Positions 1 to 16,889 of a stretch of DNA of 64,000 bases are shown in pieces; within the stretch, counting starts at the first letter, position 1, and each line of letters begins with the position of its first letter. The notes under the pieces were generated by a model. It was not told where the DNA came from. It made no database searches and saw only the letters and a list, made by a program, of their open reading frames with translations. Source of the DNA: Candidatus Helarchaeota archaeon (GTDB lineage: Archaea > Asgardarchaeota > Lokiarchaeia > Helarchaeales > RDOG01); NCBI GenBank assembly GCA_019058315.1, contig JAHPZH010000001.1, positions 1,411,318-1,475,317 on the forward strand, written 5' to 3'. Both the position numbers and the translations under genes were made by a program.

Positions 1-830
1 TTATAACTTATGCTAATGAAACTAATAATATTACTTGGTTTTTATATGATGATTTCAATCCTGGGCAATATAGAGTATGGACTAATGACTCAAATGATAA
101 TTATTATATCTGGCAAGACTGGACTTCATGGATTAATGATACTAATTTAAATGTTCCAATTAATCGGACTGCTCCAGGAGTTTATAATTATACAATTGAG
201 TTTGATGATGTATTTAATTTTATGGGATTACCGGATATCGTAATGGTCACAATCATAAACCAGATGCCTACTTCAAACCAACCTGCTGATATTATAACTT
301 ATGCTAATGAAACTAATAATATTACTTGGTTTTTATATGATGATTTTAATCCTGGGCAATATAGAGTATGGACTAATGACTCAAATGATAATTATTATAT
401 TTGGAGTGATTGGACGGCTTGGACTAACAATACCAATATAAATGTTCAAATTAACCGGACAATTCCAGGAGTTTATAATTATACTATTGAATTTAATGAT
501 ACTTATAGTCTAATGGGAATTCCAGATACTGTTATAGTTACCATTATAAATCAAGTCCCTACTTCAAATCAACCATCCGATATAATAACATGTATTGGTG
601 TTTTAAAAACGATAAATTGGTTTCTTTACGATGATTATAATTCAAGTCATTATAGAGTTTGGGTAAATGATTCAAATGATAATTATTATATTTGGCGGAA
701 CTGGACTCTATGGAATAATGATACATTGGTAAACATCAATATCAATGTTACAACTGCGGGAGTTTATAATTATACAATTGAGTTTAATGATACTTATAAT
801 CTATTTGGTTCAGATACAGTTATTGTTACA
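1..830 (+). repeat. Coding tandem repeat, period 291 bp (97 aa), about 3 copies visible
   Basis: ttataacttatgctaatgaaactaataat occurs at 1 and 292; a more diverged third copy starts near 583. Confidence 0.9.
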
Positions 831-2921
831 ATAGTTCAGAATAATAATGGTCAGAAAATACCTTTAACCGCAGGTTTTAATCCAAATATTTACCAATTTG
901 ACCAATACGGTTTTTTATGGGTAAATCTTTCGATCTGGGTCTCTTCTGACACTAATATCACTATTACTACTAATTTAACCAAACCAGCAACATTTCAATA
1001 TTTCACAAAAGGAAATGTATCTATATATTATCAAATAACCCTACAGAATGCATCGGCTTTGCTCAATGTTACAATCAGATTCCATTATAATGAATCTATA
1101 CTAAATGGAACGACAGAAAATAATATTGCAATTTATGTGTGGAATTCTTTAACGATTTCTTGGGAAATGTTAAATTTCAAGATTAACATTATCGGCAATT
1201 ATACCGAAGTTACGTTATATCAGCTATCGCAATTTGTATTGGCTCCAAAACTGCCTGAGGAAGAAGGATTAATGCTATTTCCACCACCAGCTGCTGAAAA
1301 TCAATTATTTTTATATATCATTATTGGAGGAATCTCTGCTGTAGCAGCAATAGCAATAGGGATTGGAGTTAGTAGAAGAAAAAAACCTACTCCTAAACCT
1401 AAAAAGATACCAAAAATATCCAAAGAAGAATTAATTGTCAAAAGAGCATATGATTATATCGGAGGAAATATAAGATATAAAGTAGTGGTAGAAAATGCGA
1501 CTAATGAAAATATTAAAGATATTCTAGTAGAACTAAGTATGAAAAAAGGATTTGAAGAAATAAATCCTAAAAATAAAATAAAAGTTTTAGAACCTGGTGA
1601 GAGTATAGGTTCAGATTTCATATTAACTCCTTTGACTTGCGGTAAAACCAGAATTCATGGAACAGTTCAATATCGTAATATAAAAGATGAATTGACTTCG
1701 ATGGAGATAACTCCTTCAGTTGTTCAAATTAAATGTCCGCTAGTTATGCCAAAGGAAATGGAATTATCAGATCTATTAGATCTAATGGATAAACTTCAAA
1801 AGAGTCATACGGAAATAAATTATGCAGGACTTAACAGATCTGTTGCCTATCAAATCGCGAAGGAACAAATTTCTTCCTTGGATGTTACTGAAGTAGAGGA
1901 AAATGCAGATATTTGTCATATTGTATATAGTGGAGAAGCTAAGGTAGGAGGAGATGTAATCATTATTAATTTGAACGTTGATGAGAAAAATATAATAATT
2001 GATGTATATCTAAAAGATGTTAAACAAGCCACGGGATTCTTAGCATATATTAAGAATCTTATAAACTTAGCAATTAAATATTCAGCAAAAATTTCCACAA
2101 CTATGGATGCAATAACAAGTAAAATTTATAATGCCTTCGAATTTGCACAAAGATTATCAGAATTGAATAATTTATGTCTGGAAAAAGCATCTATTGATGA
2201 TATTTTGCTAGTTCTAAAGGAATTAAATATCAAATCCAATTCTTATTTTGCTGGACTTAAGATAACTCAAATTTTTACTAGTATGTTTAATAATTGGATT
2301 ACAGAATTGGATAAGATAAAAGAAGAGAAAATATGGGAACGAACTTATATAAACTTACAATATGATATATTGAGCTGGATGGACGCTATAATAATTCTTT
2401 CGGAAACAAATTCTAAAACATATTTCGAAAATCCAGATGCAGATGACCAGACAAAGAAAAATATTGAAGCCGGTAATTCTCAACTTAGACAACAATTATC
2501 TCAAATGAATAGGGAATATTCCAGAAACATTTTGTTCGCCTTAATGCTTATAAATAAAGTAAGCGGTTTATCGATGTATAATCATAACTTTAAACCAGAA
2601 AAAGGCCTTGATTCTGATTTAATCGGAGGTTTCCTTACCGCGATTCAAAGTTTTGGAATGGAATTAGGTGCAGAAGCCAAAGAAACTGGAATGCAAAAAC
2701 TTTCCTATCAGCATTTCGAGATAGGGCTTCAAGAAGGAAAATATACTATGGCAGCACTCATTACTTCAGGTATGCCAAATCAATTAACTATAGAACGACA
2801 AAAAGAGATTTTAATTAAGTTTGAAAAGGAATTTGAGGTTGATTTAGAGAAATTCGTTGGAGATGTGAGTATTTTTAATGAAGCCGAAAAGCTAGTGAAT
2901 GAAATTTTTCTTAAAAAATAA
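3..2921 (+). CDS. 5'-partial single-pass membrane protein: tandem ~97-aa Ig-like repeats, S-layer-like beta domain, TM helix, cytoplasmic GAE/platform-like domain, helical region, C-terminal longin-like domain
   Basis: The frame is open from position 3 (ITYANETNNITW...), so the ATG at 222 is internal. Many N-x-S/T sequons; TM LFLYIIIGGISAVAAIAIGIGV followed by RRKK; C-terminal LMLINKVSGLSMY...DSDLIGGFLTAIQSFGMELG is an Asgard longin-like signature. Confidence 0.8.
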   Translation: MTYANETNNITWFLYDDFNPGQYRVWTNDSNDNYYIWQDWTSWINDTNLNVPINRTAPGVYNYTIEFDDVFNFMGLPDIVMVTIINQMPTSNQPADIITYANETNNITWFLYDDFNPGQYRVWTNDSNDNYYIWSDWTAWTNNTNINVQINRTIPGVYNYTIEFNDTYSLMGIPDTVIVTIINQVPTSNQPSDIITCIGVLKTINWFLYDDYNSSHYRVWVNDSNDNYYIWRNWTLWNNDTLVNININVTTAGVYNYTIEFNDTYNLFGSDTVIVTIVQNNNGQKIPLTAGFNPNIYQFDQYGFLWVNLSIWVSSDTNITITTNLTKPATFQYFTKGNVSIYYQITLQNASALLNVTIRFHYNESILNGTTENNIAIYVWNSLTISWEMLNFKINIIGNYTEVTLYQLSQFVLAPKLPEEEGLMLFPPPAAENQLFLYIIIGGISAVAAIAIGIGVSRRKKPTPKPKKIPKISKEELIVKRAYDYIGGNIRYKVVVENATNENIKDILVELSMKKGFEEINPKNKIKVLEPGESIGSDFILTPLTCGKTRIHGTVQYRNIKDELTSMEITPSVVQIKCPLVMPKEMELSDLLDLMDKLQKSHTEINYAGLNRSVAYQIAKEQISSLDVTEVEENADICHIVYSGEAKVGGDVIIINLNVDEKNIIIDVYLKDVKQATGFLAYIKNLINLAIKYSAKISTTMDAITSKIYNAFEFAQRLSELNNLCLEKASIDDILLVLKELNIKSNSYFAGLKITQIFTSMFNNWITELDKIKEEKIWERTYINLQYDILSWMDAIIILSETNSKTYFENPDADDQTKKNIEAGNSQLRQQLSQMNREYSRNILFALMLINKVSGLSMYNHNFKPEKGLDSDLIGGFLTAIQSFGMELGAEAKETGMQKLSYQHFEIGLQEGKYTMAALITSGMPNQLTIERQKEILIKFEKEFEVDLEKFVGDVSIFNEAEKLVNEIFLKK

Positions 2922-5970: not shown

Positions 5971-6366
5971 ATGTTAGACGAATATGAAGAAGATAAACCC
6001 GAAGAAGAAGAGGAAATTCCAGAAGTAATTGAGGAACCTGCCCCTGAAGTAAAAGAAGTGGAAGCTCCTAAAGTGGTTGAGGAACCTCCTCCTGAACTAG
6101 AGGAAGAAACAATACCAGTTAAAGAAGTTCCAGAGCAAGAAGAACATAAAAGAGAATCTTTAATTGATTTATTATTACACCCTGTTCGTGTGTTATTAGG
6201 TAAAGAAGAAGCTGTAGAGGGAAAAGAAAGTATTATTGAGACTTTATTAAAACCTTGGAGAACTATTTTAGGAATAGAACCTAAAGAGGGGGAAAGAGTT
6301 AGCATAATAGAAACACTTCTAGAACCTTGGAAAAAACTCTTAGGTTTGGAAAAGAAGGATAGCTAA
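5971..6366 (+). CDS. Acidic protein with Glu/Pro-rich N-terminus and three amphipathic SIIExLLxPWxxILG repeats
   Basis: GTGA SD upstream; repeats ESLIDLLLHPVRVLLG, ESIIETLLKPWRTILG, VSIIETLLEPWKKLLG. Confidence 0.85.
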   Translation: MLDEYEEDKPEEEEEIPEVIEEPAPEVKEVEAPKVVEEPPPELEEETIPVKEVPEQEEHKRESLIDLLLHPVRVLLGKEEAVEGKESIIETLLKPWRTILGIEPKEGERVSIIETLLEPWKKLLGLEKKDS

Positions 6367-6561: not shown

Positions 6562-6858
6562 ATGTCAGAAGAAAAAAAAGAAACCTTAATAGATATATTA
6601 TTACGACCGATTCGAGTATTGATGGGAAAAGAAGAAGCTGGAGAATCAGGCGGAAGTATTATTGACTCTTTATTAGAACCATGGAAAAGAATCTTGGGAT
6701 TAGAACCTCAAGAAGGCGAAGAAAGAGTAAGTATTATTGAAAGATTGTTACAACCTTGGAAAAAAATCCTGGGTTTAGAACCTGGAGAAGAGGGCGAACA
6801 AGGGAATATCCTTGAGACATTACTAAAGCCCCTTAAATCGCTATTAGGAATGGATTAA
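6562..6858 (+). CDS. Small paralogue made of four SIIExLLxPWxxILG repeats
   Basis: ETLIDILLRPIRVLMG, GSIIDSLLEPWKRILG, VSIIERLLQPWKKILG, GNILETLLKPLKSLLG; SD GTGAG. Confidence 0.85.
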   Translation: MSEEKKETLIDILLRPIRVLMGKEEAGESGGSIIDSLLEPWKRILGLEPQEGEERVSIIERLLQPWKKILGLEPGEEGEQGNILETLLKPLKSLLGMD

Positions 6859-15032: not shown

Positions 15033-16889
15033 ATGAGAAAAGGTTTTTTATTGGGTGGAATAGGTAATTTAATTTATTTAATAATAACTCCAATTTATGT
15101 CTTTTTACGTCATACAACCTACTTTTCTTTAGGGGGTTTAAATATTTTTATTAACTTTGATTATGATAATTCTCTTCATCTATTTTATTTTATTATAGGT
15201 ATTAGTATATTTTTAATGGGATTTGGACACCTTGAATTTTTCAATGAGAATCGTATCGAGATTTCACGCTCTACTTTTATTTTTTCTTTGATAATAGTTG
15301 TTTTTTCAATTTTTTATCATCCTAAACTAATAAATCCTATCTCAATTGATTATAGACTTTTTGATTTTATTGTATTATTTGCATCTAACACTTTAATGGC
15401 ATTTTTTTTCCTATTTTCTGCTGCAAGTTTAATTAAAAATCGGGAATTTGGGAAAAATGAAACCATTATTCTAACAAATGGATTATTTATTTTGATTTTA
15501 AGCTGCATTTGTGAACTATTATCCATTATTAATTTCATTATTTCATTAGATTTTTATTTTACAAGAGCAGGAATATCAAATCAATTATTTTTATTTATGT
15601 TGTGGACCGGTTCAACTGATCCTCATGTTTTTCCAATTTACACTTTATTTTATTTCACAACTGTCTATGGTGCAACTTTTCCAAATATTGCTACTTATTT
15701 CCTCATTTGGTTTTTCTCATTAATACCCTTAGGATTTCTAGGAATTTTAACTGCATATAATTTCTTTAAAGAAATAGTAACAACTGGAATTTATAACAAG
15801 AACAAGGAAAAAATTAAACAAGAATTATTATTAGAGCTTAGAGAAGCGTCAAATAGATATAGTGGGACAACTTTGGAGGCTTTAAAATCAAAGACAGGAT
15901 ATAATAAATCATATTTAAGTTCATTAATCAAAGAAATGATATCTGAAGGAATTTTTCAAGGGGTTATTAGAAGAAATATTATATCTTTTGAAACTAGATA
16001 TAAAACTCCATCTCGTTTAATTAAAAAAACACCAATAAAAGATTTTGATAAAGTGATAGCATCTGAACATGTTGGTATTAAAGCATTTAGAGGTGGCGAA
16101 ATTCAAGGAAGAACATATATTTATAAAATAAAAGTCGAAAATAATACGAAATATAACATTACAGATTTAATATTTCAAATTGTTTCTTATCCAGAAGATA
16201 GTATCGAATTACTGGGGGAACCTTATGATGAAGTTTCGAAATTGGATGTAGGAGGTTTTGTAAGTCCAACTTTTGAATTCGTACCAACTAGAGATTGTAT
16301 TATGGGAACTATTCATTCGACAGTCACTTATATTGATCATTTAAATAAACCTCATACAATAAATGTTGAACCATTTACAATCTCTTTAGTTTGTGGTCTA
16401 TTAAGAGCAAAAGAAATTGATATTAATGAATTTACCAGAATTACCGAAGAATTATTGGATTTTGAAAAAACTGGTGAAGAGATAAAAATACCCTATAATT
16501 CCAAATTGATATTTGATAAATTAAAGATTTTATTACCTGATTACAACTTCTGGTTTGTTACAAAACCGGAATATCGAATCCTTGGAGATATGTTTATTGG
16601 AGAATTTAATGGTTTTGCAGAAGGCAAGTATAATAAGAAGGGTGTTGGACTAAAAATTACTATTACAGGGAAGGTTGATAGTGATTTTTGTATGGGATTG
16701 ATTGAAGTTTATGCTCAAGACAATGCAATGCTCCCGCCTTTAATTTCCGAATTAAGTAAAAAGATTATTATTTGGAGCTGTAAAGAATGTAATGCTCCAA
16801 TTGATAAAGAAGCTGTTGAAAAATTATTAAGAAATCAACCTATTGAATGTAAATACTGTGGATTTGTGATTACAAAATTATTAATCTAG
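15033..16889 (+). CDS. Polytopic membrane protein with cytoplasmic PCI-like winged helix, GAE/platform-like domain and C-terminal Zn ribbon
   Basis: About 6-7 hydrophobic N-terminal segments; LIKEMISEGIFQGVI; YKIKVENNT...FEFVPTRDC...IHSTVTY region resembles ORF 3-2921; CKEC...CKYC. Confidence 0.75.
   Translation: MRKGFLLGGIGNLIYLIITPIYVFLRHTTYFSLGGLNIFINFDYDNSLHLFYFIIGISIFLMGFGHLEFFNENRIEISRSTFIFSLIIVVFSIFYHPKLINPISIDYRLFDFIVLFASNTLMAFFFLFSAASLIKNREFGKNETIILTNGLFILILSCICELLSIINFIISLDFYFTRAGISNQLFLFMLWTGSTDPHVFPIYTLFYFTTVYGATFPNIATYFLIWFFSLIPLGFLGILTAYNFFKEIVTTGIYNKNKEKIKQELLLELREASNRYSGTTLEALKSKTGYNKSYLSSLIKEMISEGIFQGVIRRNIISFETRYKTPSRLIKKTPIKDFDKVIASEHVGIKAFRGGEIQGRTYIYKIKVENNTKYNITDLIFQIVSYPEDSIELLGEPYDEVSKLDVGGFVSPTFEFVPTRDCIMGTIHSTVTYIDHLNKPHTINVEPFTISLVCGLLRAKEIDINEFTRITEELLDFEKTGEEIKIPYNSKLIFDKLKILLPDYNFWFVTKPEYRILGDMFIGEFNGFAEGKYNKKGVGLKITITGKVDSDFCMGLIEVYAQDNAMLPPLISELSKKIIIWSCKECNAPIDKEAVEKLLRNQPIECKYCGFVITKLLI

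Follow-up and report, generated by a model that had tools for sequence, protein, structure and literature searches.

A giant Helarchaeales surface glycoprotein with predicted coat-type appendage and longin domains in its cytoplasmic tail

We analyzed 64,000 nucleotides (nt) of a Candidatus Helarchaeota archaeon (NCBI GenBank assembly GCA_019058315.1, contig JAHPZH010000001.1, positions 1,411,318 to 1,475,317 of the forward strand; hereafter the window), which opens inside a surface glycoprotein gene whose 3' part is the open reading frame (ORF) at 3..2921 (+). The ORF, 972 amino acids (aa) long with an open 5' end, encodes extracellular repeats, one transmembrane (TM) helix and a cytoplasmic tail in which structure prediction places both subdomains of an adaptin/COPI-type appendage, a helical bundle and a C-terminal longin domain. 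The protein belongs to the published Asgard group that combines an appendage, a Vps28-C domain and a longin, its Vps28-C part being assigned on indirect evidence; it is not an adaptor protein (AP) complex, COPI or BBSome subunit. What is new is that, judging from sequence, fusion of this module to a membrane receptor is a minority form and does not make up one clade. [quoted passage not shown]

The ORF continues beyond the edge of the window. A scaffold gap of 100 N on contig C3 directly precedes window position 1, and upstream of it we recovered, as the first-pass annotation had proposed, an 8.5-kb frame of 2,821 codons from the same kind of gene, which opens with a segment resembling a signal peptide and closes with copies of the repeat that the ORF at 3..2921 also contains. 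Because the flanks of the gap overlap exactly by 55 nt and share the frame, the ORF is most likely the last quarter of one Helarchaeales gene that runs across the gap, starts at L001:6436 (about 8.6 kb upstream of the window) and has a product of about 3,780 aa, longer still if the assembly collapsed copies of the repeat. The whole product would then comprise a signal peptide, four blocks that look like propellers, Ig-like repeats numbering at least 13, a single TM helix and the 500-aa tail. The junction of TM helix and tail lies in a stretch, window positions 1190-1600, that is covered by a contig from another study, and the same junction is found in P0003, P0004, P0125 and P0126, each from other contigs; we therefore rejected a mis-assembly of the junction. 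Among the strain differences within 1232-2888, 26 of the 33 listed are synonymous (the list holds 40 of 180 differences). Directly upstream of the gene start lies a decayed longin remnant with stop codons (G000:C3:1402394-1402627, L020), 59% identical over 66 residues to the longin of the gene at 3..2921; it is the trace of a lost tandem gene.

The outer part of the product holds four blocks of repeats of about 55 aa, in which 25 DIYAQ-type motifs were found, and repeats of about 97 aa, with 13 units by position and one extra upstream match to a YNYTI-type pattern. The last three of these at least 13 sequon-rich units occupy 3..845 (+), with YNYTI motifs at aa 61, 158 and 255. From the spacing and sequence pattern of the repeats, we read the shorter ones as probable beta-propellers and the longer ones as probable Ig-like domains. 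In the ESM Atlas, the ectodomain scored 0.94 to "TolB family" clusters, the recognition value being low, and P0125 and P0126 gave beta-propeller-repeat matches below the cut-off. The repeats in 3..845 matched no Pfam or NCBIfam family convincingly; a match of hGDE_N to a 25-residue stretch of them was taken as spurious. Next comes a membrane-proximal domain of about 138 aa (834..1250, +), common to other fused receptors, for which we found no family, profile or PDB sequence match, including none to GAIN/ZU5. It ends in x-L-[ST]-x-F, where the first x is Gln in this protein and His in P0125, P0126 and P0127; three of six aligned relatives have His, and others have Gln or Asn. A membrane-proximal domain of this kind also lies at L004:931-1341.

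The ORF has one hydrophobic segment, at aa ~435-457, which hydropathy and the asymmetry of charges and sequons mark as a single N-out/C-in TM helix (1305..1373, +). The 15 residues before it contain no Lys or Arg and those after it 7-8. The 436 aa before the helix hold 29 N-glycosylation sequons, where 200 shuffles gave a mean of 9.8 and a maximum of 18; the 514-aa tail has 2. Sequon asymmetry and the positive-inside pattern together indicate that the last 514 aa are cytoplasmic. These counts agree with the first-pass annotation, which had described glycosylation-rich tandem repeats, one TM segment and a cytoplasmic part of about 500 aa, and all of the motifs that it quoted are present in the ORF. 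A Lys/Pro-rich juxtamembrane linker of about 20 aa, recognized from sequence (1374..1427, +), leads into the folded part of the tail.

Searches with the tail alone returned nothing significant in Pfam, NCBIfam or PDB sequences. We modeled it (501 aa, 90-row alignment) with AlphaFold2, obtaining a mean predicted local distance difference test score (pLDDT) of 92.4, a predicted template modeling score of 0.67, and four parts: a beta-sandwich at residues 6-105, an alpha/beta platform at 110-220, a bundle of helices that runs to 371 and, at 373-499, a domain resembling a longin. When the model was searched with Foldseek, ranks 1-9 were all COPI or AP-2 appendages (E 3.8e-10 to 1.8e-7, 227-249 columns), and VIA-align gave the alpha-appendage a Z of 14.1-14.2 (14.1 at a root-mean-square deviation, rmsd, of 8.0 Å over 204 aligned residues); alignments over the whole ear headed both searches. 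Taken separately, the first subdomain (1428..1739, +; model residues 3-108) is an Ig-like/GAE sandwich that matches the BBS1 GAE domain (Z 12.5, rmsd 2.4 Å, 102 aligned), and the second (1740..2081, +; model residues 109-226), a platform of the TBP/helix-grip fold, matches the AP-4 beta-appendage platform alone (2mj7; Z 13.0, rmsd 2.6 Å, 112 aligned). ESM Atlas features of the tail also point to adaptin and coatomer ears (0.81-0.87), as leads only. In the model, both appendage subdomains are present, with the platform straight after the sandwich. The coat-appendage-like domain proposed from the letters alone thus has a true platform, and a generic CARDB/Ig fold is rejected for the same reason.

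An invariant Cys pair, C75 and C107 of P0002 (window 1638-1640 and 1734-1736), sits at the end of the Ig sandwich and is shared by every one of the 90 aligned tails, by 28 Lokiarchaeia-type (Loki-type) proteins and by three multi-TM proteins; the two residues are likely to be close in space. Such a pair is odd for a cytoplasmic domain and raises the question of a disulfide or a metal site. Elsewhere in the window, the gene at 15033-16889 (+) encodes a membrane protein of the multi-pass type that has a divergent appendage and ends in a Zn ribbon at its C-terminus; the genome holds two more such genes.

The last ~130 aa (2529..2918, +; motif DSDLIGGFLTAIQSF at 2610-2654) fold in the model as a longin, with a five-stranded sheet between one and two helices, and the stop codon follows directly on this C-terminal domain. 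Its best match is Sec22b (Z 14.1, rmsd 2.4 Å, 121 aligned), and chains of Sec22b and CPLANE (Fuzzy-Inturned) outscore the mu-type chains of AP-3 and AP-4. The C-terminal longin suggested earlier is therefore upheld by the model, but a specific likeness to the mu/sigma/zeta type is not: as modeled, the domain has no preference for these subunits, and no subfamily stands out. Eukaryotic longins (Sec22b, VAMP7, Fuzzy/Inturned, AP mu/sigma, TRAPP) share the fold at Z 11-14 and rmsd 2.4-3.5 Å, whereas this longin belongs to a large Asgard family, with 131 members among the 8,524 ORFs of the genome.

Between platform and longin (2082..2516, +), the model shows a four-helix bundle (~2118-2402) and a further long helix. 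The bundle is probably Vps28-C-like, on indirect evidence. Specifically, the Vps28 family PF03997 has no direct match in the protein of 3..2921 but is matched by all six Loki-type relatives scanned (E 1.1e-5 to 3.8e-5), whose C-termini correspond to the bundle by profile (hhalign 93%, E 3.4e-7); all 28 Loki-type C-termini scored 20.5-29.8 bits on the bundle, against 0.8-4.2 bits for reversed controls. Yeast Vps28-C (2j9u) superimposes on it with 92 of 94 residues at 2.2 Å (Z 8.9, 16% identity, rank 26). The best structural match is the FAT domain of FAK (Z 11.7, rmsd 3.4 Å, 139 aligned), a score in a range, Z below about 13, that is common for helical bundles.

All four modules occur together in 12 of the 8,524 frames of the genome, 4 of them fused to a TM helix, 6 carrying three winged helices and 2 having other N-termini. 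The TM-fused genes are the window gene, C5:950828-955300, C11:707681-711460 and C1:578925-586751; the other fused paralogs are intact, and their tails are 58-71% identical to that of 3..2921. The homologues that carry names come mostly from Helarchaeota. Of the 121 genomes examined in the class, 9 gave matches at E<=1e-30, 6 within the order and 3 outside it, the latter without the longin; 6 of the 7 genomes of the order match, and the full tail was found only in this order. TM-fused proteins account for 11 of 109 full tails (P0155 makes a twelfth), and giants are undercounted in these figures, since the two homologue searches covered 275-2,505 aa only. The databases hold 8 fused proteins beyond the four of this genome, and none of the 71 outside loci examined has a fused copy. 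Membrane fusion is a minority form.

We computed a tree of 47 tails, comprising all 11 fused ones and 36 of the 98 soluble ones, chosen to cover the groups. A single origin of the fusion was rejected: constraining the fused tails to one clade gave approximately unbiased (AU) test p values of 1.7e-4 for the whole tail, 1.4e-103 for the appendage and 1.2e-6 for bundle plus longin. The separate tests of the parts matter because one paralog is mosaic. In that paralog (G000:C11:263725-266010, L005), the appendage is 79/75% identical to that of its neighbor C11:272647, and the bundle and longin are 66/70% identical to the gene at 3..2921; as its sequence reads, modules are swapped at the platform-bundle junction. 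The tree forces at least three label changes, and three could equal one gain and two losses; the fused rows are nested in strongly supported soluble groups, the Loki-type outgroup is soluble, and the ectodomains of the fused groups are unrelated. We read this as three or more independent fusions, which look recent and derived, not ancestral.

A second TM family (P0200, P0201, P0203, P0206, P0217) joins a divergent Ig sandwich to a C-terminal longin, in four of the five behind a TM helix and in two with large ectodomains; platform and bundle profiles did not match it, and we did not count it among the members. P0246, P0233 and P0270 have the same parts in another order, with the longin before the appendage, and P0246 additionally has an ectodomain, a TM helix and winged helices.

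In the common form, the module is a separate protein with a triple winged helix, encoded beside a receptor gene. Each of the six winged-helix copies of the genome has a large glycoprotein gene no more than 600 nt away, as do 173 of 3,485 other ORFs, and the neighboring receptors end in a tail of ~95-135 aa with a conserved helical cap. A profile of this receptor tail, built from 7 seed tails, found 15 ORFs, 14 of them with a winged-helix neighbor (7 of 8 without the seeds). Among outside loci, some of which are near-duplicates, 12 of 21 winged-helix copies have the same receptor neighbor; three more face a large glycoprotein gene cut by a contig end, and most of the others lie near contig ends. 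For one pair of paralogs from the same genome (L012), the predicted complex scored 0.72, while the best of three controls scored 0.00; the mark set for this score is reached by 116 of 157 solved pairs and by 2 of 215 mismatched ones. The runs share at least 66% of contacts, and the partner has a pLDDT of at least 76. The model supports a clamp, in this paralog pair, in which the triple winged helix grips the helical tail of the neighboring receptor.

Fused genes lack both the cap and the winged helices and carry just a linker of 21-53 aa; P0155 departs from this, a cap standing at its far end. In the soluble group nearest to them, receptor gene and adaptor gene lie in that order on one strand (L026-L028, L030), and a fusion could therefore arise by an in-frame deletion. 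Across the genome we noted 14 gene pairs in which a giant glycoprotein with the helical cap adjoins a triple winged-helix protein (for example, L012:2986-3943 and L184-L193); this set may be a system of tethered transcription factors in its own right.

Proteins of this module composition have been described before. Makarova 2024 (PMC10936438) reports Asgard multidomain proteins with appendage, Vps28-C and longin, in Loki/Helarchaeia with all three in one chain, as is probable here, and proposes that they are ESCRT-0 analogues that reach ESCRT-II without ESCRT-I and possibly activate small GTPases; a table there labels the Helarchaeota cluster cog.006462 "WD40 fused to Adaptin_C and EAP30 domains". 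The extra domains named in its text are TPR, Ig-like and HTH/PCI, with no membrane anchor or ectodomain, and the text has neither repeated fusion nor pairing with receptor genes. Vps28-adaptin fusions were also reported by Liu et al. (10.1101/2020.10.19.343400). Among the 33 PF02883 rows in Table S3 of Eme 2023 (PMC10307638), we recognized by eye a 541-aa partial Helarchaeales member of the family, and several chains have hydrophobic N-termini before or around the ear match, no anchor being named in that table. A term search in the text of 10.1101/2024.07.03.601958 found no mention of appendages. In the literature within reach, to which figures and most subscription papers did not belong, neither the fusion to receptors nor its repeated origin nor the clamp is described. 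An archaeal appendage with a membrane anchor has a precedent in Meth_adaptin of Methanosalsum (WP_013898578.1; Makarova 2024), in which the appendage is joined through a TM segment to a GOLD domain. That protein is small, has no bundle or longin described and no giant ectodomain, and is encoded in an ESCRT neighborhood, whereas the gene at 3..2921 lies outside one.

The ears of AP-2 alpha/beta, AP-4 beta and beta-/gamma-COP, which are the best structural matches, have an Ig sandwich followed by a platform, as does the tail, but identity is 8-14% and the angle between the subdomains differs in the model. AP and COPI large subunits place a HEAT trunk before the ear; here the ear follows a TM helix and the ~20-aa linker, there is no HEAT trunk, further domains come after the ear, and the chain is anchored in the membrane. 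In the medium and small subunits the longin is N-terminal (mu adds its homology domain), while here it comes last. The comparison with BBS2/7/9 suggested by the first-pass annotation proved apt for domain order, GAE, platform and helical region being matched by Foldseek over 366-399 columns (E 1.9e-7 to 1.1e-4), but at an rmsd of ~21 Å only the order is common. BBSome propellers, moreover, are cytoplasmic parts of a soluble chain; those predicted here lie beyond a glycosylated stalk and a TM helix, and a longin follows.

Given the Vps28-C-like bundle and the ESCRT/ubiquitin locus of the genome (E1, E2, ubiquitin, RING, UEV-Vps23, Vps25, Vps4 and three Snf7), an ESCRT-0-like adaptor is the best reading of the module. 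Inside the cell, going by eukaryotic homologues and Makarova 2024, the appendage would be a hub for partners with peptide motifs, the bundle would recruit ESCRT-II/III without ESCRT-I, and the longin would dock a small GTPase or another longin. Outside, the propeller-like heads on their glycosylated Ig-like stalk would bind surfaces or ligands. The job would be ESCRT-0-like, in that the module would tag the protein it belongs to, so that ESCRT places it, sheds it in outward buds or turns it over. ESCRT buds membrane away from the cytoplasm; for a cell bounded by a single membrane this direction is outward, contrary to that of a coat. The module would be an effector attached to chosen surface proteins by clamp or fusion, and the gene at 3..2921 would be the covalent version, with receptor tail and winged helices gone and the module placed directly on the TM helix. 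The architecture, the signs of topology, the gene adjacency and the non-monophyly of the fusions come from sequence, the tail folds and the clamp from prediction; all partners and functions of the tail are inferred. More tentatively, and at somewhat less than even chances, we propose a modular receptor-adaptor system in Helarchaeales, in which giant glycoproteins are coupled to the ear/Vps28-C/longin module by a winged-helix clamp or, in at least three independent cases, by fusion, the fused proteins being prokaryotic cargo receptors able to bring in ESCRT and a small GTPase on their own.

Several findings weigh against the ESCRT-0-like reading. PF03997 matched none of the 23 proteins scanned that are not Loki-type, Vps28-C comes no higher than 26th in the structural ranking, with FAT domains and designed bundles ahead of it, and a Foldseek search with the bundle model gave no match at E<=0.001. 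The bundle is also the least conserved module of the tail (mean top-residue frequency 0.41, against 0.54-0.63 for the others, the appendage being highest), and none of the 12 tail genes is on the contig that holds the ESCRT locus. In the model, the angle between the subdomains of the appendage differs from that in eukaryotic ears, as the high whole-ear rmsd (7-8 Å over ~200 residues) indicates. As for the split form, eight of the winged-helix neighbors of the profile-detected receptors have no appendage/bundle/longin module, so the pairing follows the winged helices, and the complex model is of a paralog pair, not of the protein of 3..2921. By sequence the winged helices resemble DNA-binding regulators of the ArsR type, and in the predicted complex the receptor tail lies over helix three of the second one (residues 105-118). 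Since this is the likely recognition helix, sequestration of a transcription factor fits as well as docking of an adaptor, and the split form may be a membrane-tethered transcription factor.

The same bundle could instead belong to a scaffold for signaling or positioning, in which the longin, in the role of guanine nucleotide exchange factor (GEF), GTPase-activating protein or GTPase dock, ties an adhesin to a polarity or cytoskeletal site and the bundle is FAT/talin-like with no role for ESCRT. Such a scaffold, which we think possible though rather unlikely, would agree with the FAK FAT domain as the bundle's best match and with the presence, among the longin matches, of Fuzzy-Inturned and Mon1-Ccz1 (both Rab GEFs), of TRAPP and of MglB; 9 of the 115 large glycoprotein ORFs of the genome have a longin match but no appendage, and one of the four fused genes faces, by eye, a small-GTPase-like gene. 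However, Z values like that of the FAT match are commonplace for bundles, the sequence bridge points to Vps28-C, and the appendage, the most conserved module, would be left unexplained. The first-pass annotation had suggested a receptor joined to proto-coat modules in one chain. On such a reading, ear and longin would act as AP/COPI adaptor pieces and drive inward budding of the receptor. Its folds were right, and both ear subdomains and a longin do share one membrane-anchored chain; according to Eme 2023 (PMC10307638), moreover, every functional domain of AP occurs in Asgard genomes, though unfused. The proto-coat part is weaker, and we consider it improbable: the modeled tail has neither HEAT trunk nor mu cargo-binding domain, the longin is C-terminal with mu/sigma not its closest relatives, the propeller-like blocks lie across the membrane and cannot be coat propellers, the form was found in one order only and looks derived, and the bundle points to ESCRT.

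Signaling by a released tail seems to us just as doubtful. Here the membrane-proximal domain would sense force or cleave itself and free the tail, and the split relatives would be tethered transcription factors whose turnover is all that the module controls. The winged helices and their covered recognition helix would suit this, and the H-L-[ST]-x-F before the TM helix in P0125, P0126 and P0127 recalls what we take to be the GPS self-cleavage motif. The cleavage site of self-cleaving GPS/ZU5-type domains, though, is His-x-Ser/Thr, and the protein of 3..2921 has Gln at the place of His and lacks winged helices, so that both the catalytic residue and an output through DNA binding are missing; with no family or structure match to back the GPS idea, self-cleavage of this protein is unsupported. 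Finally, the fusion could be an accident, either a mis-assembly or a by-product without function that deletions left in repeat-rich pairs of receptor and adaptor genes. The scaffold gap abutting the window, the decayed longin just upstream, recombination among the paralogs and the lack of a fused copy in all 71 outside loci speak for it, but an independent contig bridges the junction, four intact fused genes and eight more database proteins exist, and the variation is mostly synonymous. This explanation is largely refuted, and we hold it to be very unlikely.

Other features of the window and genome include two small tandem proteins (5971-6366 and 6562-6858, +) made of repeated amphipathic "I-I/E-x-L-L-x-P-W/V-K/R-x-I/L-L-G" units, the first of which has no Pfam match, and a leucyl-tRNA synthetase with the Pfam editing domain PF13603 (59995-62772, +). 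Outside the window, G000:C3:1001344-1042584 (-) is an open frame of 13,746 codons, rich in sequons and with a C-terminal TM segment.

Asgard appendages, Vps28-C domains and longins have been listed in tables without known cargo; the covalent fusion names one, a surface glycoprotein. The split form reduces to a compact pair, a winged-helix region of 210 aa and a tail of 80 aa, and the cytoplasmic parts are all small and should be expressible. The order of these genomes is not the closest relative of eukaryotes (Eme 2023, PMC10307638). Since the module is published, the full tail is found in one order and the fusions look recent, our results give no account of the origin of eukaryotic coats; they show what such domains can do in an archaeon, not how those coats arose. 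If the proposal of a modular receptor-adaptor system is true, an appendage domain would here sort specific membrane cargo without any coat complex.

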